A stretch of DNA of 40,999 nucleotides, taken from positions 1 through 40,999 of IMG/VR virus record IMGVR_UViG_3300018910_000004. One strand, given 5' to 3'. The position numbers and the translations under genes are program-made. A model generated the notes under the pieces. The model was not told the origin of the DNA, did no database searches, and saw nothing but the letters and a program-made list of their open reading frames with translations. The DNA is from a virus. Positions 4,979 to 21,900 of this stretch are shown piece by piece. Numbering within the stretch: position 1 is the stretch's first letter; the number at the start of each line of letters is the position of its first letter.

Positions 4979-6880
4979 TCATATGCCTGCTTTTGCGTTC
5001 ATGTTTTGTGTCGCTTGTGCGACATTCCCCGCCAGACTCGCAGTTTGTCCAGTGGGTGTTCCACCTGCGGACGGTATTCCGCGTCTATCATTTTGTTCAG
5101 GTGTCAAAAGAGGTGGTGTGCTTTTGGGTGTTGCGCCTTCTACCATTTGCTCCATTTGTCCCATAGCTTCTCCTCGTGCTTCTTCCTGTTGACGAGCTGC
5201 ATCAACTTGGGCTTTAACCACACCTGGTGCAAACTGAGTAAACTTTTCTCGAATGGTCATCATATCAGCATCTTGTACTTCTTTCTTTAATTTCTTTATT
5301 TCCTCACCTGGATTGGAGAATCCAGCTTCTTCTAAGTAAGTGGATAAAGATATAGCGCCTCTGTCTCGAAGAGTTGACGCATCAACGACTTTATCAGACC
5401 TTGAAAGTGGTAGTACATTTTCCCAATCAAATTCTATATTACGAATAATCAGATTTCCTTCTGTTACCTCACCTGTCACAGGATCAGTTATATGTTCTCT
5501 CATAAAGGCATGAGTTTCCGGAAAGTAATCAATAAAATATTGCTGGATCATATTAATCATTTGTTCTAATACTATTTCCCACTGGATACGAAGATCTGTC
5601 ACAAGATCAATAAATGGCTGGTATTGAATAGCACCAACCCGTCCAGTGTAAGGAGCAGTCCCTGACGCCAATGCAATTTTTGGAATACCGATATTAAACA
5701 TATGCTCAAGCATTCGGTTAATATATTCAGCACTAGGAAACGGAGTAATTGTCATTTGAAGTGGTCTAAAATCTGCATTCTCACCTTCAATAAATATGAC
5801 TTGTCCACTTCCCGGTTTTATAGAATCAGCATCAAAATCCGGCATGTTGATAGCCACGAATTTCATGTGAGCACCGATACGAATAAGATCTCCTTCTTCT
5901 CCCGATCTGTCATTTAGCTCAACTTGTGGATCAATAAGAGGGTCAATAAATGAAATACTCCATGGTTTACCTGCTGTCCCAAATGAGTGTCCGACAAAGG
6001 AGGGAATCTCTTTGTAATCTGTCACGATAAACTGTTTTAATTCCCGATTTATATATATGGCATTAATAACTTTTGTTTTATTATCAATAACTTCATATCC
6101 CCAATAATCAACGACTTCTCCTTTTGGTAAATTATTTTTCCCGGAGGGAATGGAAGACATGGCTGTTCCACCTCCTGCAAACAATCCATACTGATCATTG
6201 TTATGATTTCCTTTTTCAGTGCTCGTTGACTGCATTGTCGGATCAGAATACGTATCAGCGTCATAATTAAATTCACGTTTTATTTTAGCCAAACTCCACA
6301 TATCAGAATAGGCAATAAAAGAAAATGAAGAACCGGCAGCATCATCCCAGCCGACCATGACTTTCAGTAAATTCTCAACCTGCTGTATGGCAATATGTTT
6401 TCCTTTTTCATCATCCTTGACAACTTTACAGTTTAATACAAAGTCACCATCTCTGATTTGATTTATAGCACATCGTTTGAATACAACTTTGTAAAACTGA
6501 TTGTCTGATAGGACTTTTGAAATAGCTTTCTCAACAGCTTCGGCTCGTGCTGTTTCTATTTCGTCTGACTCATCACTGGCTTTTATTTTTATACGAGGAA
6601 TAGAATTAGTAAGGGCTTGATGAACTTTTGTGGCGAAGCGATAAATGTAATTTAAGACAACAAGGATATGACCTTCTTGAGATTTCATTCTTTGACCTTG
6701 TACGTTTGTCCATTTGTGATGACGACCCTCAAAAAAATCCTGACGCTTATTAATAATAACTTCACGCTCTCCAATTTCTTCTTTCATTTGACCAAGATTT
6801 TGAAGAATACGATCACTTATTTCGTCCCTCTTTTTTTCCGGAACTGAATCGTCAATGATGAATGTGCCTTTATTTGCCAT
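4979..6880 (-). CDS. Portal protein (633 aa)
   Basis: Size and position immediately after the large terminase. Disordered acidic and Gly/Pro-rich C-terminus as in many portals. No motif-level proof. Confidence 0.7.
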   Translation of the reverse strand: MANKGTFIIDDSVPEKKRDEISDRILQNLGQMKEEIGEREVIINKRQDFFEGRHHKWTNVQGQRMKSQEGHILVVLNYIYRFATKVHQALTNSIPRIKIKASDESDEIETARAEAVEKAISKVLSDNQFYKVVFKRCAINQIRDGDFVLNCKVVKDDEKGKHIAIQQVENLLKVMVGWDDAAGSSFSFIAYSDMWSLAKIKREFNYDADTYSDPTMQSTSTEKGNHNNDQYGLFAGGGTAMSSIPSGKNNLPKGEVVDYWGYEVIDNKTKVINAIYINRELKQFIVTDYKEIPSFVGHSFGTAGKPWSISFIDPLIDPQVELNDRSGEEGDLIRIGAHMKFVAINMPDFDADSIKPGSGQVIFIEGENADFRPLQMTITPFPSAEYINRMLEHMFNIGIPKIALASGTAPYTGRVGAIQYQPFIDLVTDLRIQWEIVLEQMINMIQQYFIDYFPETHAFMREHITDPVTGEVTEGNLIIRNIEFDWENVLPLSRSDKVVDASTLRDRGAISLSTYLEEAGFSNPGEEIKKLKKEVQDADMMTIREKFTQFAPGVVKAQVDAARQQEEARGEAMGQMEQMVEGATPKSTPPLLTPEQNDRRGIPSAGGTPTGQTASLAGNVAQATQNMNAKAGI

Positions 6881-9612: not shown

Positions 9613-9641
9613 TTGACAAATAACGTAGTATAGTGTATCAT
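9613..9641 (+). promoter_or_regulatory. Early sigma-70-type promoter
   Basis: TTGACA (9613..9618), 17 nt, TATCAT (9636..9641). The flank ACTTGACAAATAACG is shared with other promoters in the window. Confidence 0.65.
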
Positions 9642-9989: not shown

Positions 9990-10283
9990 ATGAATAATTC
10001 AAAAGTTAAAGTTTACAATTTAGAAAGTCCTAGAACAGGTAAACCAGTAGCTAATCAATTTATTATAGCGGAGAAAATAAATAGCGGAGAGCTTGAAACA
10101 TTTCAAAGTTATAAAAGTATCATTGCTAAAAAGTTTCCAAGTGGTGAGGTAATACTTGATAGCTATTACTGGAATTACTCACGAACTACCAGTAAATACC
10201 GTAATCAATTCTTGAGAGAGTCAACAAAAGAGACGGAACAAAAGATCAAAGACGGTATTTATAAGTTAGTAAATCTTAACTAA
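9990..10283 (+). CDS. Hypothetical protein (97 aa)
   Basis: Track ORF with coding-like composition. No motif recognised. Confidence 0.6.
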   Translation: MNNSKVKVYNLESPRTGKPVANQFIIAEKINSGELETFQSYKSIIAKKFPSGEVILDSYYWNYSRTTSKYRNQFLRESTKETEQKIKDGIYKLVNLN

Positions 10284-10286
10284 CTT

Positions 10287-10460
10287 ATGAGTAATCAAGA
10301 AAGGATAGAACTAACCAACAAAGCCTTAGAGTTAAGACAGGCAGGCGTAAGTCATCAAGAAATAGAACGAGAGTTGCAATATGAGTTTATATTCTTTGAA
10401 GACATGTTAACCAAACAAGTGGTAAGGGCTACGTTGTGGGAGGGGGTGAATGGAAGATGA
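10287..10460 (+). CDS. Small putative HTH protein (57 aa)
   Basis: Hand-translated: MSNQERIELTNKALELRQAGVSHQEIERELQYEF... ALELRQAGVSHQEIEREL looks like helix-turn-helix. The TGA overlaps the next ATG as ATGA. Confidence 0.45.
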   Translation: MSNQERIELTNKALELRQAGVSHQEIERELQYEFIFFEDMLTKQVVRATLWEGVNGR

Positions 10461-10642
10461 GACAACTAACGGTAAGCCAAAAGAAACTATTAAATACAGT
10501 TCCTATGGACTGTCAGACAGTGGATGATCTACCAGATGGAATATGGGAAAGATTGGAAGAAATAAACGACACGGAAATATTATGGCAAGAGGTCAACCGT
10601 TACTTAACCGATAGGTATTACAAGAATGAATTTTCATCTTAA
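10457..10642 (+). CDS. Hypothetical protein (61 aa)
   Basis: The track ORF 10436..10642 starts at a GTG inside the RBS. ATG 10457 follows AGGGGGTGA at good spacing. Confidence 0.6.
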   Translation: MRQLTVSQKKLLNTVPMDCQTVDDLPDGIWERLEEINDTEILWQEVNRYLTDRYYKNEFSS

Positions 10643-10653
10643 TTATTAATTAT

Positions 10654-10697
10654 TATCTTTCTTCTAGGGATTATGAAAGCTCTCTAGAAGAAGGATA
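10654..10697 (+). other. 14-bp stem-loop in an intergenic gap
   Basis: 10654..10667 pairs with 10684..10697 (13 Watson-Crick pairs plus 1 GU) around a 16-nt loop. No U-tract. Confidence 0.5.
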
Positions 10698-10713
10698 TAA
10701 AACAAACAACATT

Positions 10714-10875
10714 ATGTATGACGTAATAAAAAAGCTAGATTCAAAAATTGACAGATGTTATGACGAACTAGAACAAGCAAAGAGTCAAGACAGCTTAGAA
10801 GATACTTGTTTTTATGAAGGTATGATTGCCGGATTATCAACGGCACTACTAGAAGTTAGAATGATACCAGAATAA
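10714..10875 (+). CDS. Hypothetical 53-aa protein
   Basis: Hand-translated: MYDVIKKLDSKIDRCYDELEQAKSQDSLEDTCFYEG... Fills the gap before 10878. Confidence 0.45.
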   Translation: MYDVIKKLDSKIDRCYDELEQAKSQDSLEDTCFYEGMIAGLSTALLEVRMIPE

Positions 10876-10877
10876 CT

Positions 10878-11069
10878 ATGACTATAAAAAACTTTGAAGT
10901 TGAAATATATTTTTCAACTCACGCAGACGAACAACCGGCAGTATTTTATATTGACGCTGTAGATTTTAACGAAGCTATAGACACGGCTAAAAGTTATATA
11001 GAATATCCAGAAGCTATAGACTACGTGGATTGTAAGGTTATAAGTAATAATTTTTATAAGTTCAATTAA
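10878..11069 (+). CDS. Hypothetical protein (63 aa)
   Basis: Track ORF, tightly packed with neighbours. Confidence 0.55.
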   Translation: MTIKNFEVEIYFSTHADEQPAVFYIDAVDFNEAIDTAKSYIEYPEAIDYVDCKVISNNFYKFN

Positions 11070-11075
11070 ATAATT

Positions 11076-11264
11076 ATGCTTTGTCCAAGATGTTTGACAA
11101 ATAAAACCATCGCCATGGATTGTGAAGAAGATAACGACATACGAATAGTAGAACACTGGCGTTGCAGACAGTGTCCAAAAGAAAACGAATTTAGAGTTAT
11201 TATGGAAATACAGAAAAAAGAAATAAAAATAATACCCATAGTGGGAGATTACACAACGTTATAA
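11076..11264 (+). CDS. Small zinc-ribbon protein (62 aa)
   Basis: CPRC ... CRQCP cysteine pairs. Confidence 0.55.
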   Translation: MLCPRCLTNKTIAMDCEEDNDIRIVEHWRCRQCPKENEFRVIMEIQKKEIKIIPIVGDYTTL

Positions 11265-11338
11265 ATTAAACAAATAATAATGAATATATTTACAGCATTA
11301 TATCTCTTGATCGTACACATGATAAAAGGGGGTGAAGT

Positions 11339-11584
11339 ATGAAAATAAAAGTATATGATAATGGTGGTAAGACGTGGGATAGATACACCGTATCAATTGA
11401 TGAGGACGTATACAGCATGAGTGCCAACGCCACAAGTCCAGACGGATTTAATCAATATTGGGGTGAGCTAAAAGACTTTGACAAACCAATGTCACGATTT
11501 GGAAAACGCTTATATATTGATGAAGGACAAGTGCCGGAAGAGGTATGTAAGGCAATCGCACAACGCGCACAGCTCACAGATTAA
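11339..11584 (+). CDS. Hypothetical protein (81 aa)
   Basis: AAAAGGGGGTGA RBS 4 nt upstream of the ATG. Confidence 0.65.
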   Translation: MKIKVYDNGGKTWDRYTVSIDEDVYSMSANATSPDGFNQYWGELKDFDKPMSRFGKRLYIDEGQVPEEVCKAIAQRAQLTD

Positions 11585-11606
11585 TATATCCGTATAACTT
11601 CTTACA

Positions 11607-11633
11607 CTAGCTTTGAGCTTCTCTCAAGGCTAG
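11607..11633 (+). other. 11-bp stem-loop after 11339..11584
   Basis: CTAGCTTTGAG pairs with CTCAAGGCTAG (one GU) around a 5-nt loop. No U-tract. Confidence 0.5.
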
Positions 11634-11666
11634 CAATAAGGAATTATAAATTTAAAAAATAACCTT

Positions 11667-12086
11667 ATGAAAAAAATAGTAATGGATACAAATAAGGAAC
11701 ATTTTTCAGAAATGTTTGATGTTTCGCACGACAGTTATAAATCATTTGTTAAGGGAGCAATGAACTATATTATGCAGGAAGCAAAAAAAGAATTGGATAA
11801 GGGAGGCGAAAAAGCACGGAAAGAAGGTATAGACATAATTCCGTTCATAGAAACCTACATAAATGAGCACGCCTTAGAAAATGGTATCGACATAACGAAA
11901 CCTAATCACTGCTTAGTATTAGGATATATAATTTTCAATCTCAAAGATAATGTTGAACAGATGGAAAAGAAAGCTATGCTCATGAGATCGCTAAGCGGAA
12001 TTATGGAAATCAAAGAAATTATGGATACTCTACAAAAAGAAGATGTTAAAAGTTCAGATGACGAAAAAGAAAGGATTTTAAACTAA
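11667..12086 (+). CDS. Hypothetical protein (139 aa)
   Basis: Track ORF. No motif recognised. Confidence 0.6.
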   Translation: MKKIVMDTNKEHFSEMFDVSHDSYKSFVKGAMNYIMQEAKKELDKGGEKARKEGIDIIPFIETYINEHALENGIDITKPNHCLVLGYIIFNLKDNVEQMEKKAMLMRSLSGIMEIKEIMDTLQKEDVKSSDDEKERILN

Positions 12087-12087
12087 T

Positions 12088-13458
12088 ATGGAACCAACAC
12101 CAATAACGCTAACAAACAAAAAAGGGGGTGAAACGGTGGAATATGGAGCGCTCGAATTTGAAGTGCTACACCAGAAAAATAAGTCAGTGCCAGATCATGC
12201 CGATCCTGTAGAAATGGTAGAGGATGACCGGAACGCCCTCGGTCTATCTATTATCAATGATTTGCCAACTCTTTTAATAGGAGAGACTGGAACGGGTAAA
12301 ACTTCCGCTATAAGAGAACTTGCTTTTCTTAGAAAACAGGGATACACACGTATTAACATGCACGGATATGCAACACCGGATGATTTGATTGGTAGCAAAT
12401 CGGTAAAGAATGGGTCTACATATTATGAACAAGGGATTTTGACAAAGGCTATGACCGAAGGTCACATAACAGTACTTGACGAACTAAACGCTACTCCGCC
12501 AGACTGTTTATTCATAATCCATGGATTGTTGGATGAGGATAAACGCATCAGTTTACCAAATGGAGATATTGTAAAACCTCATAAAGACTTTAGATTTTTT
12601 GCCACTATGAATCCTGATTATGAGGGAACACGAGGATTAAACCGAGCATTTATTGATAGATTTTCTGTCATACTAAACGTTGAAGTGCTAAAACCTCAAA
12701 ACGAAACGAATGTACTGATGCAACGCACCGGATTAAAACAGGAGATGGTAGAAAAAATGGTTATGTTGGCACATATGGGACGAAAAGCATACGCCGAACA
12801 AAAGACATTGACCTTTATATCTACTAGATCACTACTTCAATGGGCTGGACTTGTTAAACATGGATTGGACATCAAAAAAGCATTTCAAACAAGTATCGTA
12901 AATAAGGCACGAGCAGAAGAACAATCCGCATTTCAAGATTTCTTTAGTGCTGTGTTCAAAAAAAGTTCTGATAATAATAATCTTGATATGCCTGTATTCA
13001 CAACACGAGGAGAGATAAAAAAGAAGGATGATCAACTATTAAAATATGAAAAGGCTATCAAAGAATATGAACGCATACACAAAAATGAAGTAAAAGAATT
13101 AGAAGAATTACGAATAGAATCTGTGACGGCACGTACTAAACTTCAGAATTTACTTGATAATTTAACGGGTACTGCTGGTAAACAAGCTATACAAGAAGCT
13201 CAAGCAGTATTACAACCAAGCGGAACAGGAGGAAGTGTAAAAGTAGAATGGGAAAGATATGAACCGATAGGAACGCCACAAGAATATACAAACGCTGATC
13301 CTATAGACCTTACTAAACTTGCAGGCACATCACATGCACTTGATGAAAAAATGTTACTTAAAGCATTGAATGTTTTGGACACTCAAGAACCCGTTAAAAG
13401 AACACGCAAAAAGAAAGCAGTAGAACCAATTAAAAATATTGACGAGAATCCATTTTAA
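12088..13458 (+). CDS. AAA+ ATPase, MoxR/CobS-like (AAA_5 type), with a C-terminal coiled coil
   Basis: Walker A LLIGETGTGKTSAI and Walker B HITVLDELNA. The start is uncertain: an in-frame GTG at 12136 sits 4 nt after an AAAGGGGGTGA motif. Confidence 0.85.
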   Translation: MEPTPITLTNKKGGETVEYGALEFEVLHQKNKSVPDHADPVEMVEDDRNALGLSIINDLPTLLIGETGTGKTSAIRELAFLRKQGYTRINMHGYATPDDLIGSKSVKNGSTYYEQGILTKAMTEGHITVLDELNATPPDCLFIIHGLLDEDKRISLPNGDIVKPHKDFRFFATMNPDYEGTRGLNRAFIDRFSVILNVEVLKPQNETNVLMQRTGLKQEMVEKMVMLAHMGRKAYAEQKTLTFISTRSLLQWAGLVKHGLDIKKAFQTSIVNKARAEEQSAFQDFFSAVFKKSSDNNNLDMPVFTTRGEIKKKDDQLLKYEKAIKEYERIHKNEVKELEELRIESVTARTKLQNLLDNLTGTAGKQAIQEAQAVLQPSGTGGSVKVEWERYEPIGTPQEYTNADPIDLTKLAGTSHALDEKMLLKALNVLDTQEPVKRTRKKKAVEPIKNIDENPF

Positions 13459-13461
13459 TCT

Positions 13462-15012
13462 ATGTACGCAACACAAGAATATATAGACATATTAACAATA
13501 GGATTATCGGCTCAAACAGGAATTGAGATACGGGCAGGGGGGGAATGGGCAGCAGACGTAAAACAAAAAATACTTTACTATAAAGCTGACTCCCTTCGCA
13601 ACTTGCCCTTTGGGCTTGTTCGTGGATTACTACTTCATGAGATAGCACATATAAAATGGACTGAAGAAGTTGATCCGTTTTCAGCGGTTGCCAAACCGTA
13701 TGAACATGCTATCCATAATGTTTATAACGCATTTGAAGATTTACGCATTGAACGAGAATTAAAAAGCACGTATGGAGATTATGCGACAAATGCCATAGAT
13801 GTTGCAAATTATTATGCATTGATCGATAAGATAGAAAAGAGTAAACAAGACCTAACATCGCTGAGCCGTATTGATCAATTTTTGAACCTTGTATTAATAG
13901 AAGACTTGATGGGAAAAAATGCAATAGTAAGACATAATATATATATAAGACTAGATGAGTTTAAAACCGATAAAAGAGTACAAGAAATTTTTGAAGAAAA
14001 TGAAGACATAATAGACCAAATATGTAATAATGTTCGTTGGTCTACAAGTACCCGAAAAATGGCAGAAATAATAGATGGAAATTTAATTCCAATCATTCGC
14101 GAGTTACTAGAGGAAGACGAAAAAGAACAGCAAAAAAAACAACAGGAAGATCAAGGAAAAGAAGGCGAAGAGGAAGGACAGGGACAAGGACAGAATCAAG
14201 GAAAAGGACAACCACAATCAAGAAAAGGAGGACTCATGGCTCAGTTATTAGAAGAATTAAAAGAGCAAACAGGATTACAGTATTGTCTTGATGGACATTT
14301 TAAAAATGCACCGCCAGTTGAAAGACCTACTGAAGCTGAAGCCCTAGCAATTTTAAGACCATATTCTTCTACTCTTGCCCAACGTCTTCGAGATATACTC
14401 ATTGAACGTGCAACAATTAGATATACTGGCAATACCAAATCGGGTAGACTTCTCAATCGTAATGCATACAAAGTAACAATACCAAATGAGACTCGTATAT
14501 TTAGTAGACGAACTAATCCTGATACACCAGACTATTCTGTTTATATAGCGCTTGATAGTAGCGGAAGTATGGCTAGTGAAGGTCGAGCTGTGTATGCATT
14601 CATGGGTGCCGTGCTGTTAAAAGATGTATGCCACCGACTCAATTTTCCTATTAAGATATTCGCTTATGACACAAAGGCGTGGGAATTAAAGAGGACAGAT
14701 GACTATCATGGAAATGGCGGTGGAACTAATGACGCAACAGCGCTCGATGCTATTAACAATGAAATGATAGCCGGAGATAATAACATTGTCTTTGTAGTAA
14801 CTGATGGTGAAACAGGACGAACCCAACAGTTTGATACTGTTAAAAAAGAACTTATAAAAAAGGGCGCTACTATATATGGTGTAGGTATTGGAAAAGAATC
14901 AAGTATCCAACACGCCATAAAACATAACTACGACCCCGCTATCTATGTGCCGGAAGTTAAAGACCTACCGCTTGAGCTCATTCGTACCATGAGGTTATTA
15001 ATTAAAAGATAA
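13462..15012 (+). CDS. HExxH metallopeptidase-like N-domain fused to a C-terminal von Willebrand A domain (CobT/DUF2201-like)
   Basis: LLLHEIAHIKW (HExxH). MIDAS motif YIALDSSGSM with downstream VFVVTDGETG. Central E/K/Q/G low-complexity linker. Confidence 0.8.
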   Translation: MYATQEYIDILTIGLSAQTGIEIRAGGEWAADVKQKILYYKADSLRNLPFGLVRGLLLHEIAHIKWTEEVDPFSAVAKPYEHAIHNVYNAFEDLRIERELKSTYGDYATNAIDVANYYALIDKIEKSKQDLTSLSRIDQFLNLVLIEDLMGKNAIVRHNIYIRLDEFKTDKRVQEIFEENEDIIDQICNNVRWSTSTRKMAEIIDGNLIPIIRELLEEDEKEQQKKQQEDQGKEGEEEGQGQGQNQGKGQPQSRKGGLMAQLLEELKEQTGLQYCLDGHFKNAPPVERPTEAEALAILRPYSSTLAQRLRDILIERATIRYTGNTKSGRLLNRNAYKVTIPNETRIFSRRTNPDTPDYSVYIALDSSGSMASEGRAVYAFMGAVLLKDVCHRLNFPIKIFAYDTKAWELKRTDDYHGNGGGTNDATALDAINNEMIAGDNNIVFVVTDGETGRTQQFDTVKKELIKKGATIYGVGIGKESSIQHAIKHNYDPAIYVPEVKDLPLELIRTMRLLIKR

Positions 15013-15015
15013 TAC

Positions 15016-15044
15016 TTGACAAATAAGGTATTATATGGTATTAT
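15016..15044 (+). promoter_or_regulatory. Sigma-70 promoter with extended -10
   Basis: TTGACA, 17 nt ending in TGG, TATTAT, then ATG 15054 nine nt downstream. Confidence 0.65.
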
Positions 15045-15053
15045 AGAATCATA

Positions 15054-15239
15054 ATGAAAGCTAAAAGATACAAAATCACAACCAAAATACATTTTTTCGT
15101 AACAGCTAAGAATCCTGAAGATGCAGCCATGGAATTTATTAATATATTCAACACTGTGGTATATGCCACAGGGGGTGAGAGAAGTTTTGCGCTAGTTAAG
15201 GGAAAAGAAGGATTAAAAGTTGAAGAACTACCATTCTAA
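15054..15239 (+). CDS. Hypothetical protein (61 aa)
   Basis: First ORF after the promoter. No SD, and only a very short leader is expected. Confidence 0.55.
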   Translation: MKAKRYKITTKIHFFVTAKNPEDAAMEFINIFNTVVYATGGERSFALVKGKEGLKVEELPF

Positions 15240-15240
15240 T

Positions 15241-15375
15241 ATGAGAATACCTGAGGAAGATCTATGTCCGGACTGCGGACAAGAATTAATACGAACCTAT
15301 GAAGAACGAGCACCTGGATATGTAGAAGTTGTTTATTATTGTAAATGTGGATCAAACTATTATGAAAGACGTTAA
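15241..15375 (+). CDS. Zinc-ribbon mini-protein (44 aa)
   Basis: Hand-translated: MRIPEEDLCPDCGQELIRTYEERAPGYVEVVYYCKCGSNYYERR. Two Cys pairs. Confidence 0.5.
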   Translation: MRIPEEDLCPDCGQELIRTYEERAPGYVEVVYYCKCGSNYYERR

Positions 15376-15390
15376 AGATTTAATACTAGC

Positions 15391-15687
15391 ATGGGGATTA
15401 GTTCTTATCTTAGGAATTATAAGTTATTACATTATTACGCTCTTATGAAAAAACCAGAGCCATTTATAAATGATTTCAGTAAACCCAAGAAAGTTGTTGA
15501 AGCAGAGATTGAAGAAAGAAAAAAGATTGGTAACACTCGAAAACTTATGTATACAATAATAGGATTGTTAGTAGTCTTAGTACTCTACACAGTATTTTAT
15601 TACATAAGTTTATTTTACGATAATTATAAAGTCACATTTTATGAACCAATAAAATTACACGTTCCATTTACTATATATGAAAGATAA
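15391..15687 (+). CDS. Membrane protein with one TM segment (98 aa; alternative start at 15445)
   Basis: Hydrophobic segment LMYTIIGLLVVLVLYTVFYYISLFY. Confidence 0.55.
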   Translation: MGISSYLRNYKLLHYYALMKKPEPFINDFSKPKKVVEAEIEERKKIGNTRKLMYTIIGLLVVLVLYTVFYYISLFYDNYKVTFYEPIKLHVPFTIYER

Positions 15688-15973
15688 ATTATATCCAGAT
15701 TGCACAGCATGTAATGAATATCAAAAAAATAGAATAGGCATAGTCTGTCCTACTCATAAAAATGTAGAGATACAAAAAATGTGGGAAGCAGTAGTTAATA
15801 AAAAACCTAGCTACTGTATACTATGGTTTCATGATTGGGGAGATTGGAAAGATGATGAGCGATATGATATTTTAGGAATGTTTAGTGCGATTCGAGGACA
15901 TGGAATATTACAAATAAGAGAGTGTAACCAATGTCACAAAAAACAAATAAGAAAAGAGGAGGTATATGCATGA
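15677..15973 (+). CDS. Cys-rich hypothetical protein (98 aa)
   Basis: CTAC...CPTH and CNQCH motifs. Confidence 0.5.
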   Translation: MKDKLYPDCTACNEYQKNRIGIVCPTHKNVEIQKMWEAVVNKKPSYCILWFHDWGDWKDDERYDILGMFSAIRGHGILQIRECNQCHKKQIRKEEVYA

Positions 15974-16185
15974 TGAGCCCTGAAGAATTATCTGTTTTAA
16001 AAATGGTAAAGTTTGCAATACTGATGGAAACGAACAGCGGTGTTTTAGGGAAATCACCTGATTATATTATAGAAAAATTTGAAAGATGTGGAGACATTAA
16101 AACTCCAGAAGAATTATTAGACGGTCTTGATGCTGCTAATGAACATAAAATGAGAGGTTACCATGAACGATGGCTTAAAAAATGA
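15931..16185 (+). CDS. Hypothetical protein (84 aa)
   Basis: Track ORF. Start uncertain, and it overlaps the upstream ORF by 43 nt. Confidence 0.45.
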   Translation: MSQKTNKKRGGICMMSPEELSVLKMVKFAILMETNSGVLGKSPDYIIEKFERCGDIKTPEELLDGLDAANEHKMRGYHERWLKK

Positions 16186-16325
16186 ATAGAGAATGTAAAA
16201 GATGCACTAATTGCTGGGCGTTAAAAGATCTGAATATGTTTCATAAAGACAGAAAGAATAAAGATGGACTGCATTATTATTGTAAAAAGTGTAGAGAAAA
16301 TAATCGTAAAAAGTTAGAAATTTGA
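16182..16325 (+). CDS. Zinc-finger mini-protein (47 aa)
   Basis: ATGA overlap with the upstream stop. MNRECKRCTNCWALKDLNMFHKDRKNKDGLHYYCKKCRENNRKKLEI. Confidence 0.5.
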   Translation: MNRECKRCTNCWALKDLNMFHKDRKNKDGLHYYCKKCRENNRKKLEI

Positions 16326-16334
16326 GAGAGGATA

Positions 16335-16368
16335 AGAGCCTAACTTGTTTAGTAGGCGGTTAGGCTCT
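16335..16368 (+). other. Perfect 10-bp stem-loop
   Basis: AGAGCCTAAC (16335..16344) pairs with GTTAGGCTCT (16359..16368) around a 14-nt loop. No U-tract. Confidence 0.5.
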
Positions 16369-16380
16369 ACATATTAGCTT

Positions 16381-16683
16381 ATGAAAACTATCGAACACAC
16401 CACCGATCTAAATGCAGCGGCTTACTATTACGCAAAAGGTGGAAAGGTAAAAATTACTATTGGTGAAAATAGATGGGTAACTAAATACGCCTTTAGTCGA
16501 CGAGTAAAACAACGCATTTGGAAATTCGCTATCGAGATAGATGACAAGTATGTAAAATCTTACTGGTCAAAAAAGGCTACTATGAACGTAAGAAAATATA
16601 TGGAAAGCCGAAATGAAATAAAAAAGAAATGTTATGAATTTGACACAGGAAAACACGTTAACAGTTGGTTTCATCACTTATAA
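16381..16683 (+). CDS. Hypothetical protein (100 aa), possibly DUF5659-like
   Basis: The N-terminal TTDLNAAAYYYAKGGKV pattern resembles that family, from memory only. Confidence 0.5.
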   Translation: MKTIEHTTDLNAAAYYYAKGGKVKITIGENRWVTKYAFSRRVKQRIWKFAIEIDDKYVKSYWSKKATMNVRKYMESRNEIKKKCYEFDTGKHVNSWFHHL

Positions 16684-16688
16684 TACAC

Positions 16689-16717
16689 TTGACAATTAGT
16701 TACTAATAAGGTATAAT
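16689..16717 (+). promoter_or_regulatory. Consensus sigma-70 promoter
   Basis: TTGACA, 17 nt, TATAAT, then ATG 16728 ten nt downstream. Confidence 0.7.
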
Positions 16718-16727
16718 ATGGGATATT

Positions 16728-16907
16728 ATGGAAAATGAATACATGACAATAGAAGAGGTAGCAAATCTTTTAAAGATCAATCCTCGCCAAGTAAGAAAGA
16801 TGATAGAGACAGGAAGGCTGAGAGCTAAAAACATCAATGCTTCCGGCGGAATCCGGAAGATATATAGAGTATTGAAGGAAGATGTGATACGACCAGACAC
16901 TATTTGA
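16728..16907 (+). CDS. Excisionase/MerR-type HTH DNA-binding protein (59 aa)
   Basis: Hand-translated: MENEYMTIEEVANLLKINPRQVRKMIETGRLRAKNINASGGIRKIYRVLKEDV... The antisense track ORF 16703..16900 is its shadow. Confidence 0.6.
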   Translation: MENEYMTIEEVANLLKINPRQVRKMIETGRLRAKNINASGGIRKIYRVLKEDVIRPDTI

Positions 16908-16941
16908 TTACAAATATTGTGGAAAGGGGGTGAAAAAAATT

Positions 16942-17325
16942 ATGGGAGAATTAGCCAAGTTAGCTAAAGCGAGGTCGCCATTTCTACAGGTTGAACCTGG
17001 AAAATCGACGGTTTGCGTTTATAAGGGCTACAAAATGATTCCCGACACGTTTGATCCAACTAAGGAGAAATTTAGATTTATCCTTATTGAAGATGGTGTA
17101 GAGAAATTCTTTGATACATCATCGAATAGAGTTGCGCTTGTTATGGATGAAGCTGCGGAAGAGATTAAAAACAAAACCGGTAAAGGTTTCGTCAAAGTAA
17201 CAAGAGGAATCAAAACATCCAAAGACGGAAAAACAAAAACTCAATGGGAGGCAGAAAACGTTATGGACGAAAGTGGCACTGTTAGCAAAAAACAAGCTGA
17301 GGATTTCGCACTCGAGATCAAATAA
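16942..17325 (+). CDS. Probably abundant early protein (127 aa), function unknown; a DNA-binding or OB-fold role is speculative
   Basis: The track start 16930 is a GTG inside the RBS AAAGGGGGTGA. ATG 16942 lies 8 nt after it. Followed by an intrinsic terminator. Confidence 0.65.
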   Translation: MGELAKLAKARSPFLQVEPGKSTVCVYKGYKMIPDTFDPTKEKFRFILIEDGVEKFFDTSSNRVALVMDEAAEEIKNKTGKGFVKVTRGIKTSKDGKTKTQWEAENVMDESGTVSKKQAEDFALEIK

Positions 17326-17341
17326 GCGATGTTTTTTAAAG

Positions 17342-17373
17342 CCTGATGATGGTGGAAGCTATCATTAGGTTTT
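17342..17373 (+). terminator. Intrinsic terminator
   Basis: 9-bp stem CCTGATGAT / ATCATTAGG (one GU), 10-nt loop, then TTTT. Confidence 0.6.
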
Positions 17374-17380
17374 AGAAAAT

Positions 17381-17656
17381 ATGAATACATTTTATATCAT
17401 AATTGGTAAAGTAGTTTTACTCACACTAGCATTCTTTTTAACACTTGCCGCCACTCTTTATTTTAACTTCAAATACATTCCAGACAAACACGCTAATGAA
17501 ATGTTTGCCGCTATGCTTATAAGTTATGGAGCAGGCACAGTCTTTTCACTCATAACGGTGCTCCTATTCACTCGAGATGACTATGAATACACAACAGACA
17601 CTGATCAAACAGAAAGTGGAGTACGCCCTGAAGTTCTCGAAGAAGTTACAGTTTGA
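17381..17656 (+). CDS. Membrane protein with 2 predicted TM segments (91 aa)
   Basis: Hydrophobic segments VVLLTLAFFLTLAATLYF and LISYGAGTVFSLITVLLF. Confidence 0.55.
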   Translation: MNTFYIIIGKVVLLTLAFFLTLAATLYFNFKYIPDKHANEMFAAMLISYGAGTVFSLITVLLFTRDDYEYTTDTDQTESGVRPEVLEEVTV

Positions 17657-17822
17657 CTACGTGGCAAAAGATTTAGAAATAACTCGAGATCGCATAGTCA
17701 TTCCACACGAACTAAGAAACGATGAGAATGATGAACCGTGGAGATTGTTTGCAACCGATACAAAGGACAGTAAACTTCGAGGATTTCACGTTGCAGGCAT
17801 TCAAGAGTTAAAAGTTGTGTAA
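17577..17822 (+). CDS. Hypothetical protein (81 aa), start uncertain
   Basis: Track ORF that overlaps 17381..17656 by 80 nt in another frame. Confidence 0.4.
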   Translation: MTMNTQQTLIKQKVEYALKFSKKLQFDYVAKDLEITRDRIVIPHELRNDENDEPWRLFATDTKDSKLRGFHVAGIQELKVV

Positions 17823-17845
17823 TAATAGAAATGAGGTGAAATCAC

Positions 17846-18067
17846 ATGGGAAGAAAAAAGAAGATTGAAGAGCCTAAGAAAAAATGGTATGTTATTTCTA
17901 GTAGTATTTATGGCAGTCTCGACGACGTAAAAAGACAAATCGAGGAATGGCAAGAAGAAGAAAGACTAGATGGAGATGCACGTATTTTTATAGTTGAGAA
18001 AGAAATTGAATTTCAAATAAAAGAAATGTGTGTTACAGAAGAACCAGAAGAGGTTAGAGGATACTAA
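17846..18067 (+). CDS. Hypothetical acidic protein (73 aa)
   Basis: GAGGTGA RBS 7 nt upstream of the ATG. Confidence 0.6.
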   Translation: MGRKKKIEEPKKKWYVISSSIYGSLDDVKRQIEEWQEEERLDGDARIFIVEKEIEFQIKEMCVTEEPEEVRGY

Positions 18068-18091
18068 TTAATAGAAAGGAGGTGACGACGT

Positions 18092-18238
18092 ATGGATAGT
18101 GGACACAAACCAACACAAGACGAGGTTAATGCTCGCAATGAGGAAAGCCGCCGACTTGACGCTGAGAAAGATAACAAGGAGATGACTCCTGAAGAAAAAG
18201 AACAGCGTGAAGTAGATAACCAAAGAGGCGCAGAGTAA
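18092..18238 (+). CDS. Hypothetical 48-aa charged protein
   Basis: AAAGGAGGTGA RBS 6 nt upstream. Hand-translated: MDSGHKPTQDEVNARNEESRRLDAEKDNKEM... Confidence 0.55.
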   Translation: MDSGHKPTQDEVNARNEESRRLDAEKDNKEMTPEEKEQREVDNQRGAE

Positions 18239-18320
18239 CTTCTTTTTCAGTTGTCTCTAATGAAAGGTGGGACGACTGATTTGGCAAGTTAGCCAGAAAT
18301 AGGAAAGGGGGTGAAAAAAT

Positions 18321-18590
18321 ATGATCGTAACATTGATAGTAGGATTAATCGCAGGACTTATAGCCGCTGCAGTCATGAAAACTTCATACCCATGGTATGT
18401 AGACATGATAATTGGTGTAATAGGAGCTTTCGTCGGAAGTTTCTTATTAGGATTACTTAATGCACCTACATATAGTGGTGCTGCACCAGGAGGAAATATC
18501 GTTTGGGATATTATTGTTGCAACCCTAGGAGCTATTGCTCTTATTGCTGTCACAAGATTTATCGCCGGACAAATGGATAGCCGAACATAA
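18321..18590 (+). CDS. GlsB/YeaQ/YmgE-family (transglycosylase-associated) small membrane protein
   Basis: Gly-zipper TM pattern IVGLIAGLIAAAV ... IIGVIGAFVGSFLLG ... ATLGAIALIAV. AAAGGGGGTGA RBS. Confidence 0.7.
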   Translation: MIVTLIVGLIAGLIAAAVMKTSYPWYVDMIIGVIGAFVGSFLLGLLNAPTYSGAAPGGNIVWDIIVATLGAIALIAVTRFIAGQMDSRT

Positions 18591-18596
18591 AAGTTA

Positions 18597-18625
18597 AGGG
18601 CGGGTGAGTAATACTTATCCGCCCT
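18597..18625 (+). other. GC-rich stem-loop after 18321..18590
   Basis: AGGGCGG pairs with CCGCCCT and the helix can be extended. No downstream U-tract on the plus strand. Confidence 0.45.
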
Positions 18626-18635
18626 AAATATAAAC

Positions 18636-18893
18636 ATGATAATAGAACCAATTAGACCATACATGCTTGTTGAGATAGAAAAAAAGGAAGAAAAAACGCC
18701 AGGTGGCATTATACTACTTGAAAGAAGAAAAGATAGCTTACAAGAAGGCAAACTCATTAAATCATCCTTACCCATGTGTAATAATCGTGTTGGAATGAAA
18801 GTATATTTCAAGATGTGGGCAGGAGAACCGGTTGACAATACAAATTATAAATTAGTACATATAAAAGACATCGTTGCTTATGAACAAACTTAA
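18636..18893 (+). CDS. groES: GroES/Cpn10-like co-chaperonin (85 aa)
   Basis: Aligns by eye to GroES: IEPIRPYMLVE vs IRPLHDRVIVK, EEKTPGGIIL vs ETKSAGGIVL, VGMKVYF vs VGDIVIF, and a C-terminal KDIVAY. Confidence 0.7.
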   Translation: MIIEPIRPYMLVEIEKKEEKTPGGIILLERRKDSLQEGKLIKSSLPMCNNRVGMKVYFKMWAGEPVDNTNYKLVHIKDIVAYEQT

Positions 18894-19065
18894 TACAATG
18901 CTATGGATATATTCAGGGATTTGGTTAACAGCCCTCTTTATATTCCTCATATACGCCATGCTAAAACTTAATATAGATTTATTAGGCTACATAGCGCTAT
19001 CTATTGCACCCTTCGCTTTATTAACACTAAAGATTGGGAGAAAACACTTGACAAATTTAGAATAA
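18874..19065 (+). CDS. Small membrane protein (63 aa; the likelier start is ATG 18898, just after the groES stop)
   Basis: Two hydrophobic segments. Confidence 0.5.
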   Translation: MLMNKLNTMLWIYSGIWLTALFIFLIYAMLKLNIDLLGYIALSIAPFALLTLKIGRKHLTNLE

Positions 19066-19076
19066 TATACTAGATT
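19048..19076 (+). promoter_or_regulatory. Sigma-70-type promoter overlapping the end of 18874..19065
   Basis: TTGACA (19048..19053), 17 nt, TAGATT (19071..19076). Confidence 0.5.
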
Positions 19077-19185
19077 ATTTATAGACAACACAGAGAAAAT
19101 ATCTAGCTGATATTTAAACAGTTGTACGTTGGGCTTTGGCTTAGCTAGAGCCTACTCTGTGAGCCCAGCGTAGAGCTGTTTTTTT

Positions 19186-19410
19186 ATGGACAATCCACCA
19201 CAACAAACAACAATCAAACTGACTCCCCTACAACTTCTTAAAAAGAATGCGCCCGCCATATACCAAACATACTCCAACAAAATGATCAATAAACTTACCA
19301 ATGAGATACACGCACTCGAATTTGATCTTAAACATTCAATGGAAGAAAACAAACAGAAGATTATAGAGCTGATTACAGAAAAGAAAAATGAGCTTGCCCT
19401 ATTCGATTAA
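19186..19410 (+). CDS. Hypothetical coiled-coil protein (74 aa)
   Basis: Track ORF preceded by a roughly 100-nt structured leader that ends in T7 immediately before the ATG. Confidence 0.55.
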   Translation: MDNPPQQTTIKLTPLQLLKKNAPAIYQTYSNKMINKLTNEIHALEFDLKHSMEENKQKIIELITEKKNELALFD

Positions 19411-19492
19411 CAAAAAGGAGTCCCGAAGGACTCCTAATTGTTGAAAGCTAAAAAGTACGACTAGGGGTTTAATCTAAGCGGATACTTTTTAT
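19411..19492 (-). ncRNA. Candidate phage small RNA of about 80 nt
   Basis: Bounded by a consensus promoter (19499..19527, minus) and the terminator at 19412..19435. No AUG. A 5' domain has an 8-bp stem (19483..19490 with 19450..19457) closing a 25-nt loop. Confidence 0.55.
19412..19440. terminator. Bidirectional intrinsic terminator
   Basis: 8-bp GC-rich stem AGGAGTCC / GGACTCCT with a 4-nt loop (UUCG on the minus strand). Flanked by AAAAA on the left, which gives U5 for the minus transcript. Confidence 0.75.
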
Positions 19493-19498
19493 AGAAGT

Positions 19499-19527
19499 AC
19501 TATACCATACAAAGCGTTATTTGTCAA
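19499..19527 (-). promoter_or_regulatory. Minus-strand sigma-70 promoter with extended -10
   Basis: Reverse complement reads TCTTGACAAATAACGCTTTGTATGGTATAGT: TTGACA, 17 nt, TATAGT with a TGG prefix. Near-identical to the plus-strand promoters at 9613 and 15016. Confidence 0.65.
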
Positions 19528-19784
19528 GAGAGCTATTAAAGTCGTGAGGGGTACAGCAGATGGCGACTATAAATCGGTGCAACTCCGAATAAGAAATAAC
19601 TAGGCACATGTTCTTAGAAAGCGGACTGCTAGAAGTGAGTGACGCCTTACACCCGGCTAATAGGAAGGGTGTAACCAAACACGGAATGAACCGGATAAAT
19701 ACCTTAATAGAGGGGGTAGGGGGGAGTTGAATCCCAATCCGGAATAGAATATTTAAAAATACAATTCCTATTTAAAAATAAGTA

Positions 19785-19812
19785 TTGCAAAATTTAAAGA
19801 TAAGAGTATATT
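19785..19812 (+). promoter_or_regulatory. Candidate promoter with a leaderless start
   Basis: TTGCAA, 16 nt, TATATT, then ATG 19819 beginning 7 nt after the -10. Confidence 0.45.
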
Positions 19813-19818
19813 CAAAGT

Positions 19819-20211
19819 ATGGAACAAGAACAAAAGGGAGAAATAGAAACCTTTAGTCCACCAGAACAGGATAGAATAGTACAATATCAACGTATGCTTC
19901 ATTTAGTAGATTCAGCTTCAAGAGATCTTCAAGATAGAAACCCCACAGTCTTTGTATATAAATATGCGGATGAGAAACAGCCTCCACGCTATATGTATAC
20001 CATAGATGAATGTTTTATAGAAGGTATGCAGCATGCGGCGGAGAACTTAAAAAAGAAATATTCGGCGTCCCCTCATATGAAGCGAGCATTTGAGAATATA
20101 GACGAGGCGTATAGGATTGAGAAAGAAACCGAGGAGGCTTATCAAATCCGAGACTGTGAAAAGATGTGGGAAAATGGTATGCCAGTATACGATGACCCAA
20201 ATAACTATTGA
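19819..20211 (+). CDS. Hypothetical protein (130 aa)
   Basis: Track ORF. No motif recognised. Confidence 0.6.
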   Translation: MEQEQKGEIETFSPPEQDRIVQYQRMLHLVDSASRDLQDRNPTVFVYKYADEKQPPRYMYTIDECFIEGMQHAAENLKKKYSASPHMKRAFENIDEAYRIEKETEEAYQIRDCEKMWENGMPVYDDPNNY

Positions 20212-20236
20212 CATTTATCGTATTATATGGTATACT
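20208..20236 (+). promoter_or_regulatory. Sigma-70 promoter with extended -10
   Basis: TTGACA, 17 nt ending in TGG, TATACT, then ATG 20247 ten nt downstream. Confidence 0.65.
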
Positions 20237-20246
20237 AAGATATAAC

Positions 20247-20477
20247 ATGGAAGCTAAAGATATATCAACACCAATTCTTTCCGAAATTAAAACACTAGAA
20301 ATAAAACCAGAAGGACGTTATCTTTTGGTACTCCCCAAGTCCAGTGCTGGCACAGAGGCTGAACTTACTCAGCTTAATGAAGCTCTTAAAAACTTATTTG
20401 GAAGCGCTCGTGTATTAGCAATTTTTGTTAACGAAATAAGTGATGTAAAAATCGCTGCGTTAATGGAGGAAAAATAA
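20247..20477 (+). CDS. Hypothetical protein (76 aa)
   Basis: The track ORF 20208..20477 begins inside the promoter. The internal ATG 20247 (MEAKDIST...) fits the promoter geometry. Confidence 0.55.
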   Translation: MEAKDISTPILSEIKTLEIKPEGRYLLVLPKSSAGTEAELTQLNEALKNLFGSARVLAIFVNEISDVKIAALMEEK

Positions 20478-20513
20478 AGGGATTTATTATTAAAAATTTA
20501 TACACACAACAAT

Positions 20514-20771
20514 ATGAGTATAAGAAATAGCACGTTGGGTGGGAGACAGAAAATAAGTTTGAAAGAGCGCGATGTTCTTATTTACGGCGACGAGAAAATA
20601 TTAATATTCTCGACCGAAGATAATAACGATTTGTTAAGTTCAGACAAATTAATGGATATTGCCATCGGCTTCTTAGAAGAGGAAAAATATTTATTTGATA
20701 AAAAAGAAGATTTTAATAAATTTGTAGACGATTATATTAAAGAATTACAATCTATTAAAAGAAAAAAATAA
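20514..20771 (+). CDS. Hypothetical protein (85 aa)
   Basis: Track ORF. Confidence 0.55.
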   Translation: MSIRNSTLGGRQKISLKERDVLIYGDEKILIFSTEDNNDLLSSDKLMDIAIGFLEEEKYLFDKKEDFNKFVDDYIKELQSIKRKK

Positions 20772-20772
20772 T

Positions 20773-21003
20773 ATGGCAGACACAAGAATACATTTGGTAA
20801 AAGAATTAGAAGCACGATTACCTAGGGGTAATACTTCTATCACAAGCGACTTGCTGCAGATAATAGCAAAAGCTAAGGCTGGGTATTATCATGACTTTGA
20901 ATCACCTGTAGCAACGCCAAAGATGGAATTAGTAAAAGATCTACGCGATGTTGGATTTACTGATATAGCGTCCAGAGTTATCAATGGAGATTATGATGAA
21001 TAA
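20773..21003 (+). CDS. Hypothetical protein (76 aa)
   Basis: Track ORF, abutting the upstream stop. Confidence 0.55.
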   Translation: MADTRIHLVKELEARLPRGNTSITSDLLQIIAKAKAGYYHDFESPVATPKMELVKDLRDVGFTDIASRVINGDYDE

Positions 21004-21145
21004 TTACACACCACTTAAACTTATGACCGTTAAAGAACATGAAGCCAAATTAGTTGCAATGTTTTTAGGGATCATTGTAACCATATTATTAATTGTACTT
21101 GGAGTATGGTTTTTCTCTAACAATCCTCCTCCATCTATTAAATGA
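20993..21145 (+). CDS. Small single-TM membrane protein (50 aa)
   Basis: Hand-translated: MMNNYTPLKLMTVKEHEAKLVAMFLGIIVTILLIVLGVWFFSNNPPPSIK. ATGA overlap with the next gene. Confidence 0.5.
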   Translation: MMNNYTPLKLMTVKEHEAKLVAMFLGIIVTILLIVLGVWFFSNNPPPSIK

Positions 21146-21900
21146 CTATTAAACATTTTTTATATAACAATACCGTTGAGCTTGAGTTTGATGAAGAAAA
21201 GCATTTATATCATATAGGTCAAACTAAGGTTGATGGAGTCACAGGAGTTCTTACAGTCATCAACAAACCAGCTCTTATCTTTTGGGCAGTTAATAAGGCT
21301 GTCTCTTTTCTTGAGAAAACATTTGTAGCCGGCAAAGTCTATGATGAAATGCAGGTTAAGGAAATGTTAGACACCGCAAAGACCGCACATCGTAAGAGTT
21401 CCAGCGAAGCATCTAACCTAGGAAAGTTTGTGCATCAATGGATAGAAGATTATATTGCGGGTAAGAACCCAGCAATACCGGTGAACCCTCAAATGAAATT
21501 TGCGATAGATAGTTTTCTTAAATGGGAGAAAGATCACAATGTAAAGTTTTTAAAATCCGAACAGATTGTATATTCGAAAGAATTTAAGTATGCAGGTACG
21601 CTAGATTTTACCTGTGAGTATGACGGGAAAAAATACTTAGGAGACTTTAAAACATCAACCGCTATATATGATGAGTATTGGTTACAAACCGCTGCTTATC
21701 AACACGCTTACTTAGAGGAATTTCCTAATGAAAAAATTGATGGTACTATAATAGTAAGGATAGGGAAAGATGGTACTGTAGACTTTGAAGCTAGTACGCC
21801 GGAAGATTATAAAAAAGATTTCAACGCTTTCTTAGGAGCTCTCATGTTGCGAAGAAGGTTAGAAGAACGTAAGTTTAATAAAACACAAAATGGACAGTAG
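21142..21900 (+). CDS. PD-(D/E)XK nuclease (RecB/Cas4-like phage exonuclease)
   Basis: GTLDF ... YLGDFKTS (D...D-x-K) followed by QTAAYQHAY (QxxxY). Confidence 0.65.
   Translation: MTIKHFLYNNTVELEFDEEKHLYHIGQTKVDGVTGVLTVINKPALIFWAVNKAVSFLEKTFVAGKVYDEMQVKEMLDTAKTAHRKSSSEASNLGKFVHQWIEDYIAGKNPAIPVNPQMKFAIDSFLKWEKDHNVKFLKSEQIVYSKEFKYAGTLDFTCEYDGKKYLGDFKTSTAIYDEYWLQTAAYQHAYLEEFPNEKIDGTIIVRIGKDGTVDFEASTPEDYKKDFNAFLGALMLRRRLEERKFNKTQNGQ

Follow-up and report, generated by a model that had tools for sequence, protein, structure and literature searches.

An HExxH-VWA adaptor and its MoxR-class AAA+ ATPase: a divergent viral CobS/CobT-like module in an uncultured siphovirus-type phage

Do the cobS- and cobT-like genes of phages serve cobalamin synthesis, or do they encode a machine of another kind? 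The viral cobS/cobT class is core in T4-like cyanophages and is widely counted in viromics among the auxiliary metabolic genes (AMGs). We took up this question with IMG/VR virus record IMGVR_UViG_3300018910_000004 (positions 1 to 40,999, 40,999 nucleotides in all; henceforth the window), the genome of an uncultured phage in which two open reading frames (ORFs) on the + strand, 3 nt apart (TAA-TCT-ATG), encode an AAA+ ATPase of 456 residues and a VWA-domain partner, here called the adaptor, of 516 residues. A first-pass annotation of the sequence had described two adjacent genes for an AAA_5-type ATPase with Walker A (GETGTGKTS) and Walker B (VLDELN) motifs and for a partner that combines an HExxH motif, a charged linker and a VWA domain with an intact MIDAS, the adhesion site that depends on a metal ion. 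Each of these features was located where it had been placed (Table 1). What that annotation missed is that the partner has a CobT-type architecture, that the module is very common in viruses and that a pair of a metallopeptidase-vWA protein and a MoxR ATPase has already been described in phages. The locus is a new, highly divergent copy of this widespread viral CobS/CobT-like module. By itself it changes little, the module being seen in hundreds of phages, and its value is that of a clean and compact test case. We propose, with modest confidence that this is right rather than wrong, that the two proteins form a self-contained two-component machine of the MoxR or CobS-CobT type, which would carry out ATP-driven remodelling with a probably active zincin and would not be a cobalt chelatase.

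The adaptor and its HExxH signature

What our analysis contributes is a quantified contrast: the peptidase signature is kept in the viral and mobile-element forms of the adaptor, whereas cellular CobT has lost it. When profiles were searched exhaustively, 663 clusters (50% identity) matched the adaptor at E<=1e-30, and 433 GenBank phage records match the ATPase; the first-pass annotation had spoken of such pairs as known in bacteria and in some phages. Among the top matches, 141 of the 148 relatives with an N domain keep H-E-x-x-H and 144 of the 148 keep E60, the exceptions to the motif reading HQxxK, HExxK, TExxH or SIxxR; E92 is present in all 149 aligned relatives. Across the 15 homologues used for modelling, H59, E60, H63, N89, E92, D93 and R95 are invariant together with the MIDAS residues (15/15), and conservation of these residues exceeds 90% among the top 150 cluster representatives. 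The motif also recurs in isolate phages, as HHEIGH in gp80 of Gordonia phage Anamika, as DHEVAH in SSU5_049 of Salmonella phage SSU5 and as GHEVGH, with EDARIE, in the 'peptidase' gp139 of cyanophage S-RIM8; all three proteins also carry DxSGS as their MIDAS motif and are encoded next to a CobS-like ATPase. By contrast, HExxH is missing from every one of 120 cellular CobT N domains (0/120), which read GDSMAL where the phage reads LHEIAH. The EQARVE motif is kept in 108 of the 120, the solved CobT reading FDAVEQARVE.

Judged from these alignments, HExxH is a conserved family trait and not a coincidence, the latter having been named in the first-pass annotation as a way in which its proposal could fail. 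The same comparison shows strong purifying selection on the motif and its catalytic-base glutamate within the viral lineage, and their loss from cellular CobT. The contrast argues against the 'mistaken peptidase' view of the viral proteins and against the AMG label, and does not in itself establish a function. Cellular CobT has two invariant histidines of its own, H66 and H71 (residues 66-71 of 9uka_G, in an H[DN]xxxH pattern), which lie about 8 residues downstream of the position that aligns with the phage HExxH. They are paired by hhalign with H59 and H63 only through the insertion of a gap, which leaves the register of the lost site ambiguous.

The layout of the adaptor as a whole is that of CobT. 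An AlphaFold2 model built on the 15 homologues has a predicted local distance difference test score (pLDDT) of 80.6, and a model of the N domain by itself one of 93.4. The predicted order is an N domain, a disordered linker, two long helices, a loop at residues 321-353 and the VWA domain. The pLDDT drops below 50 at residues 234-254 of the linker, whose length varies among homologues, and again in the loop, yet G328, L330, K337 and F347 within this loop are invariant in the 15 homologues. The loop holds the same position as the CobT shaft (Q373-R413) and aligns with the pre-MIDAS segment of midasin. The VWA domain scores just above the Pfam threshold (24.5 bits versus a cut-off of 23.8), and Foldseek searches with this half of the model returned VWA folds at 1e-7 to 1e-5, with the MIDAS domain of Rea1/MDN1 at the top (1.2e-7) and NorD at 6.4e-6. 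D365, S367, S369 and D448 are present in 152/152 aligned relatives, and the MIDAS site (DxSxS...T...D) is complete on the VWA fold. The profile of the adaptor family matches the solved CobT 9uka_G at 1.5e-14 and midasin at 4.8e-15. Its PHROG matches are the unnamed phrog_1576 (5e-20) and two CobT families, phrog_5298 (3.2e-14) and phrog_17276 (4.6e-10), and BFVD holds dozens of full-length fold matches named VWFA, CobT-like, cobalt chelatase or metallopeptidase.

According to a 2026 cryo-electron microscopy and crystal study of CobSTN (bioRxiv 10.64898/2026.07.21.739949), CobT consists of an M48-like N domain, a disordered linker of ~90 residues, a shaft and a VWA domain with MIDAS. The three-part layout of the phage adaptor is the one found in genuine CobT, in which an M48-like fold lacking HExxH forms the N domain; the HExxH domain is thus the counterpart of CobT_N and not an unrelated fusion or add-on. 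Sequences that bridge the two groups point the same way: a CobT-like protein, P0015, carries HExxH and matches Pfam CobT, and among distant HExxH-bearing members 52 of 72 match Pfam CobT_C and 15 of 72 match the CobT N-domain family PF06213.

Is the N domain, then, a zinc peptidase? In the AlphaFold2 model H59, E60 and H63 lie on helix 50-66 and E92 lies on the following helix (78-104), where it is inferred to be a candidate third zinc ligand. The conserved HExxH signature suggests that the zincin is probably active, and conservation of the general-base glutamate, beyond that of the two histidines, favours catalysis over mere metal binding. Several results weigh against this reading. No Pfam peptidase family matched the N domain significantly; the best hit was DUF2201_N (0.005, with two homologues), and the M78 and YgjP-like matches were weak, coming from single homologues within a range of 0.005-0.08. 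Foldseek against the PDB ranked selecase, jannalysin, BlaR1 M56 and SPRTN at the top, all of them weak matches (E about 1-2) from a library that ends in April 2026 and holds no CobT_N structures. Direct comparison of the phage N domain with CobT_N was not significant, whether profile against profile with cellular CobT_N (probability 0.26) or as an hhalign profile against the single sequence of the solved CobT_N, the two alignments having probabilities of 0.2-0.3; the homology of the two N domains is argued from the bridging sequences, the topology and the shared RGL and E[DQ]xR[IV]E motifs. The literature that we found on phage CobS/CobT consists of annotation-level statements, apart from work on the p618/p892 pair from ATV (Acidianus two-tailed virus). 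Moreover, an intact HExxH could mean metal binding or delivery, not proteolysis.

This last point leads to an alternative in which the pair is a non-proteolytic metallochaperone, as are NorQD and CoxDE, and HExxH only holds a metal, either structurally or for delivery to a client. MoxR/VWA systems are classically metal-insertion chaperones, as discussed in bioRxiv 10.64898/2026.07.21.739949, and such a role would be in keeping with the weak fold matches to active peptidases and with the fact that cellular CobT functions with a dead version of the domain. However, the general base E60, which is not needed for metal binding alone, persists in 144 of 148 relatives, and the few lineages that lose a histidine tend to lose the glutamate too (HQxxK, SIxxR), which is what decay of a catalytic site as a unit would produce. 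We regard a pure metallochaperone as improbable, and the adaptor as probably an active zincin.

The ATPase and the cobalamin question

The ATPase is assigned to the MoxR class by both of its domains, AAA_5 (1.8e-27; 96.5 bits versus a Pfam cut-off of 22) and CbbQ_C (5.7e-12; 46.1 bits versus a cut-off of 20.6), and belongs to phrog_249 ("porphyrin biosynthesis"; 1.2e-44). Its relatives of solved structure include CobS (9ujv, 1.5e-25), NorQ (4.8e-21) and CbbQ (6.5e-20), CobS being the best single-domain match. When the protein was aligned with five viral homologues, GETGTGKTS, VLDELN, the sensor FATMNPDYEGT and STRSLL were kept in all six, and by sequence Walker A, Walker B, sensor 1 and sensor 2 are intact. 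The core is conserved, whereas the C-terminal tail varies in sequence across homologues; this tail is always charged, has a basic patch at its end and closes with the dipeptide Pro-Phe in three of the six sequences (the window and the homologues L002 and L004).

The kinship with CobS is an argument for the AMG interpretation, in which viral CobS/CobT would join a host CobN as a cobaltochelatase and boost the supply of vitamin B12 during infection, class II ribonucleotide reductase being one enzyme that might profit. Databases usually annotate the genes in this way, PMC8651126 and PMC3037004 put the idea forward as a hypothesis, and the adaptor adds to it by sharing the CobT architecture and having a C-terminal domain homologous to CobT_C. 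Yet both proteins fall far below the equivalog cut-offs, the ATPase with 87.3 versus 558.55 bits for TIGR01650 (CobS) and the adaptor with 24.3 versus 759.05 bits for TIGR01651 (CobT). The adaptor also misses the Pfam CobT cut-offs (PF11775, 16 versus 21; PF06213, 10.2 versus 26.1). Nor would a chelatase explain selection for a peptidase site, HExxH and the catalytic glutamate being kept in the viral forms and found in 0/120 cellular CobT. The 41-kb window contains no CobN, corrin or other cobalamin gene, and neither do the four related loci for which genes were called; one relative lies on an integrative element amid recombination and replication genes. Several phages with such a pair infect hosts (Salmonella and E. 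coli, Vibrio cholerae, Lactococcus) that are not known to have a CobN-dependent aerobic pathway, which also counts against the AMG interpretation.

We conclude that the pair is not a standard cobalamin module, although a host could still supply CobN; had it been one, the first-pass annotation would by its own account have been wrong. The AMG interpretation as a whole appears quite unlikely to us. The annotation had preferred remodelling or cleavage of a host target to cobalt chelation. Chelation is indeed unlikely in view of the equivalog scores and HExxH, and cleavage is plausible, while the 'host target' was a guess. The HExxH contrast gives a sharp and testable case that the label 'cobalamin biosynthesis / porphyrin biosynthesis AMG', put routinely on viral cobS/cobT genes, is probably wrong. 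Confirmation would mean that the B12 interpretations in many virome studies need revision, and would define a new class of phage ATP-dependent protease.

Related loci and the early arm

Synteny ties the two genes to each other. The ATPase gene lies directly upstream of the adaptor gene in 5/5 IMG/VR loci (contigs of 17-103 kb), and these two genes are the only ones common to the window phage and the five contigs. The pairing is thus conserved across otherwise unrelated viral genomes. In one relative (L009, 3992-9584) four small genes of unassigned function (174, 197, 267 and 162 aa) stand between the ATPase and HExxH-VWA genes, which means that strict adjacency is not obligatory. The possibility that the pair is a known anti-phage defence system was rejected after PADLOC models gave nothing meaningful for either protein.

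Within the window, the pair occupies a + strand early arm (9990-25594), of which it supplies the two largest ORFs, the next largest having 252 aa; the description of the pair as the largest investment of this arm therefore stands. Among the ORFs of at least about 100 aa that were scanned, the arm carries one exonuclease (21142-21900, phrog_298), no other Pfam or PHROG match besides the pair, and no detectable DNA polymerase, primase or helicase. As no such enzyme was detected, the phage appears to depend on host replication proteins. For a phage of 41 kb in which hardly any other early function can be recognised, the pair is the main non-structural investment. Its position in the early arm suggests that it acts at an early stage of infection, and that its client is more likely a protein of the host, of defence or of replication than a virion protein.

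Virion proteins are the clients in another explanation, a virion-assembly chaperone and protease that acts on phage structural proteins while heads or tails mature; such a role has been proposed in jumbo phages and for the ATV pair p618/p892. The ATV precedent is experimental, p618 binding p892 and virion proteins in what was assigned to tail development (PMC4124505), and ORF892 has a fold match to the adaptor at 3.3e-5; for group 2.2 jumbo phages the role was proposed by Iyer et al. for MoxR plus metallopeptidase-vWA proteins (PMC7824862). In the window, however, the pair stands apart from the structural and lysis genes, which are on the opposite (-) strand. Relatives adjoin genes for RadC, DnaB-type helicases, RNA ligase, Pyr_excise, DNA polymerase III and clamp or clamp-loader proteins, and one paper places the pair in a "replication/accessory module". 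Moreover, an integrative element that is not viral, and that has resolvase, integrase-like and ParB/RepB genes, holds a homologous cluster in which the CobT-like HExxH-VWA protein P0015 is encoded (L011 5551-9593 and L012 3525-7567), and no virion genes occur in the 17.6 kb examined around this cluster. A role in virion assembly therefore seems unlikely to us, if less so than the AMG interpretation, and we continue to favour early remodelling by an adaptor with a probably active zincin. The P0015 cluster has the order AAA_5/CbbQ_C ATPase, DUF3150 protein, 104-aa ORF and CobT-like gene; in the literature we found no link of DUF3150 with CobS or CobT.

The phage origin of the window, a siphovirus-type (tailed) genome, is confirmed by its structural and lysis genes: family scans found a major head protein, a tape-measure-like protein, the large terminase and a GH19 lysin domain, all on the - strand. 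A search of GenBank phages returned no nucleotide-level relatives, and there is accordingly no close cultured relative and no host assignment; tblastn with the capsid protein reached only ~30% identity, to Bacillus, Streptomyces and gut-metagenome phages. The GH19 domain (chitinase-type, endolysin-like) covers only residues ~740-940 of a 1061-aa protein (1786-4974, - strand); instead of a simple endolysin, this protein may be a lysin associated with the virion or a tail protein that bears a lytic domain. Two large - strand ORFs of the structural region, 28080-31697 (1204 aa) and 4979-6880 (632 aa), matched nothing in Pfam or PHROG.

Three near-perfect sigma-70-like sites (11 to 12 of 12) lie on the + strand in intergenic gaps of the early arm, at 9613-9641, 15016-15044 and 16689-16717. 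The first may start the transcription unit that contains the pair and the second, directly past the adaptor stop codon, may start the next, so that the pair looks as if it closes the first rightward transcription unit; the promoter scan is weak evidence, the totals for promoters and terminators being no higher than in shuffles. A terminator-like hairpin within the ATPase gene (12226-12244) is probably a chance match. A 139-aa ORF (11667-12086, + strand) stops 1 nt upstream of the ATPase start codon, a spacing that suggests translational coupling. Neither this ORF nor the small ORFs downstream of the pair qualified as a third gene of the module, a candidate rejected on the grounds that they are not conserved in related loci and have no family match.

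Table 1. Features of the ATPase-adaptor locus, in coordinates of the window (aa, amino acids)
Feature	Position	Strand	Basis or remark
Promoter-like site, 11/12	9613..9641	+	Head of early arm; consensus match only
MoxR-class (CobS/NorQ/CbbQ-type) AAA+ ATPase gene, 456 aa	12088..13458	+	ORF, Pfam, PHROG and PDB matches
AAA_5 core, aa 61-192	12268..12663	+	Pfam AAA_5 (PF07728)
Walker A GETGTGKTS, aa 65-73	12280-12306	+	Sequence motif
Walker B VLDELN, aa 129-134	12472-12489	+	Sequence motif
CbbQ/NorQ-type C-terminal lid domain, aa 206-278	12703..12921	+	Pfam CbbQ_C (PF08406)
Variable, charged C-terminal ATPase tail, about aa 300-456	12985..13455	+	Alignment with 5 viral homologues
CobT-like adaptor gene, 516 aa (zincin-like N domain, disordered linker, shaft loop, VWA/MIDAS)	13462..15012	+	
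N-terminal zincin-like domain, aa 1-230	13462..14151	+	AlphaFold2: helix alpha1, three-stranded beta-sheet, helical bundle
HExxH motif, H59 E60 I A H63 (LHEIAH, aa 58-63)	13636..13650	+	Sequence motif
EDLRIE motif, E92-E97	13735..13752	+	Matches EQARVE of cellular CobT by hhalign (EDxRIE versus EQARVE)
Low-complexity Q/E/G/K linker, aa 215-262	14104..14247	+	Composition; predicted disordered
Loop ahead of VWA strand beta1, predicted 'shaft', aa 321-353	14422..14520	+	Conserved, low model confidence
VWA domain, aa 358-515	14533..15006	+	Pfam VWA
MIDAS D365, S367, S369 in DSSGSM, aa 365-370	14554-14571	+	Sequence motif
MIDAS T422	14716-14727	+	Sequence
MIDAS D448 in TDGETG, aa 447-452	14800-14817	+	Sequence motif
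Promoter-like site, 11/12, extended -10 TG	15016..15044	+	Directly past adaptor stop codon; consensus match only

Proposed mechanism and known systems

By analogy with CobSTN, NorQD and CbbQO, the ATPase would assemble into a hexameric ring, the loop at residues 321-353 of the adaptor would enter the pore of this ring as a shaft, and the N domain of the adaptor would dock on a lid domain of the ATPase. The MIDAS site would then grip an acidic residue of the client, held between the VWA and N domains, and ATP hydrolysis would pull on the adaptor and so remodel the client. More speculatively, the client might also be cleaved by the zincin, in what would be an ATP-driven targeted protease; cleavage is proposed because the zincin site is intact. 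A bolder generalisation, which we put forward tentatively and think doubtful, would remove the viral cobS/cobT class as a whole from B12 metabolism: it would be a zinc protease, driven by ATP and targeted by MIDAS, with which mobile elements act against a host or defence protein early in infection. The HExxH form found in viruses and mobile elements would then be ancestral, and cellular CobT, with its dead zincin, and possibly the AAA-linker-MIDAS arrangement of eukaryotic midasin would be derived from it.

CobS-CobT is the closest cellular system. Both ATPases are clade-6 AAA+ proteins with a CbbQ-type lid, and the two genes are adjacent; both adaptors combine an alpha1-beta3-helical N domain, a disordered linker, a pre-VWA shaft and a VWA/MIDAS domain, with the C-terminal half of the phage protein detectably homologous to CobT (1.5e-14). 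In the solved complex the CobT shaft inserts into the pore of the CobS hexamer and the CobS small domain docks CobT_N (bioRxiv 10.64898/2026.07.21.739949). The phage adaptor is shorter (516 versus 637 aa), and the phage ATPase lacks the N-terminal extension of CobS and adds a variable tail of ~150 aa. CobS-CobT works with CobN, whereas no CobN was found in the window.

Among viruses, a phage CobS/CobT pair was reported in 2011 for Vibrio phage ICP2 (PMC3037004). The viral pairs that we compared, ICP2 ORF41/42, Gordonia Anamika gp80/81, Salmonella SSU5_049/050, the 'peptidase' and CobS of T4-like cyanophages and those of haloarchaeal tailed viruses, resemble the window pair as the same two-gene module, with the same domain order, an adaptor with HExxH and MIDAS, and a place in early or replication regions. 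The window pair is distant from the isolate-phage proteins, at no more than about 26% identity over a third of the adaptor and no more than about 30% over the ATPase core, and in SSU5 and the cyanophages, unlike in the window, the adaptor gene precedes the ATPase gene or small genes lie between the two. From group 2.2 jumbo phages, Iyer et al. (2021; PMC7824862) described a MoxR ATPase paired with a vWA protein that bears a metallopeptidase domain at its N terminus, a 'chaperone-cochaperone' pair with a proposed role in virion assembly or processing. By its description this jumbo-phage pair (ASV44728/ASV44729) has the same architecture as the window pair, which comes, however, from a 41-kb siphovirus-type genome and whose early-arm location fits the proposed virion role poorly. 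ATV p618/p892 is the only viral MoxR-VWA pair for which we found experimental data, and these include stimulation of the ATPase activity (PMC4124505); the pair is a virion component of an archaeal bicaudavirus and, according to Iyer et al. (PMC7824862), has no peptidase domain.

NorQ-NorD and CbbQ-CbbO share with the window pair the homology of the ATPases, the VWA fold (NorD, 6.4e-6) and the logic of motor, adaptor and client. For NorD and CbbO no HExxH N domain is reported, and they act on cNOR and Rubisco, metabolic enzymes of the cell for which the window has no gene. Midasin, a single polypeptide of ~4900 aa with six fused AAA modules and no zincin, strips assembly factors off pre-60S ribosomes. 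The phage ATPase matches all six of its AAA modules (summed E 2e-85; PDB 5jcs, 6i27, 6qt8 and 8ql1), midasin and the phage adaptor both have an acidic low-complexity linker ahead of the MIDAS domain, and the linker, pre-MIDAS loop and MIDAS of the adaptor match midasin slightly better than CobT (4.8e-15 versus 1.5e-14). The two viral genes have the look of midasin's motor-linker-MIDAS design in unfused form.

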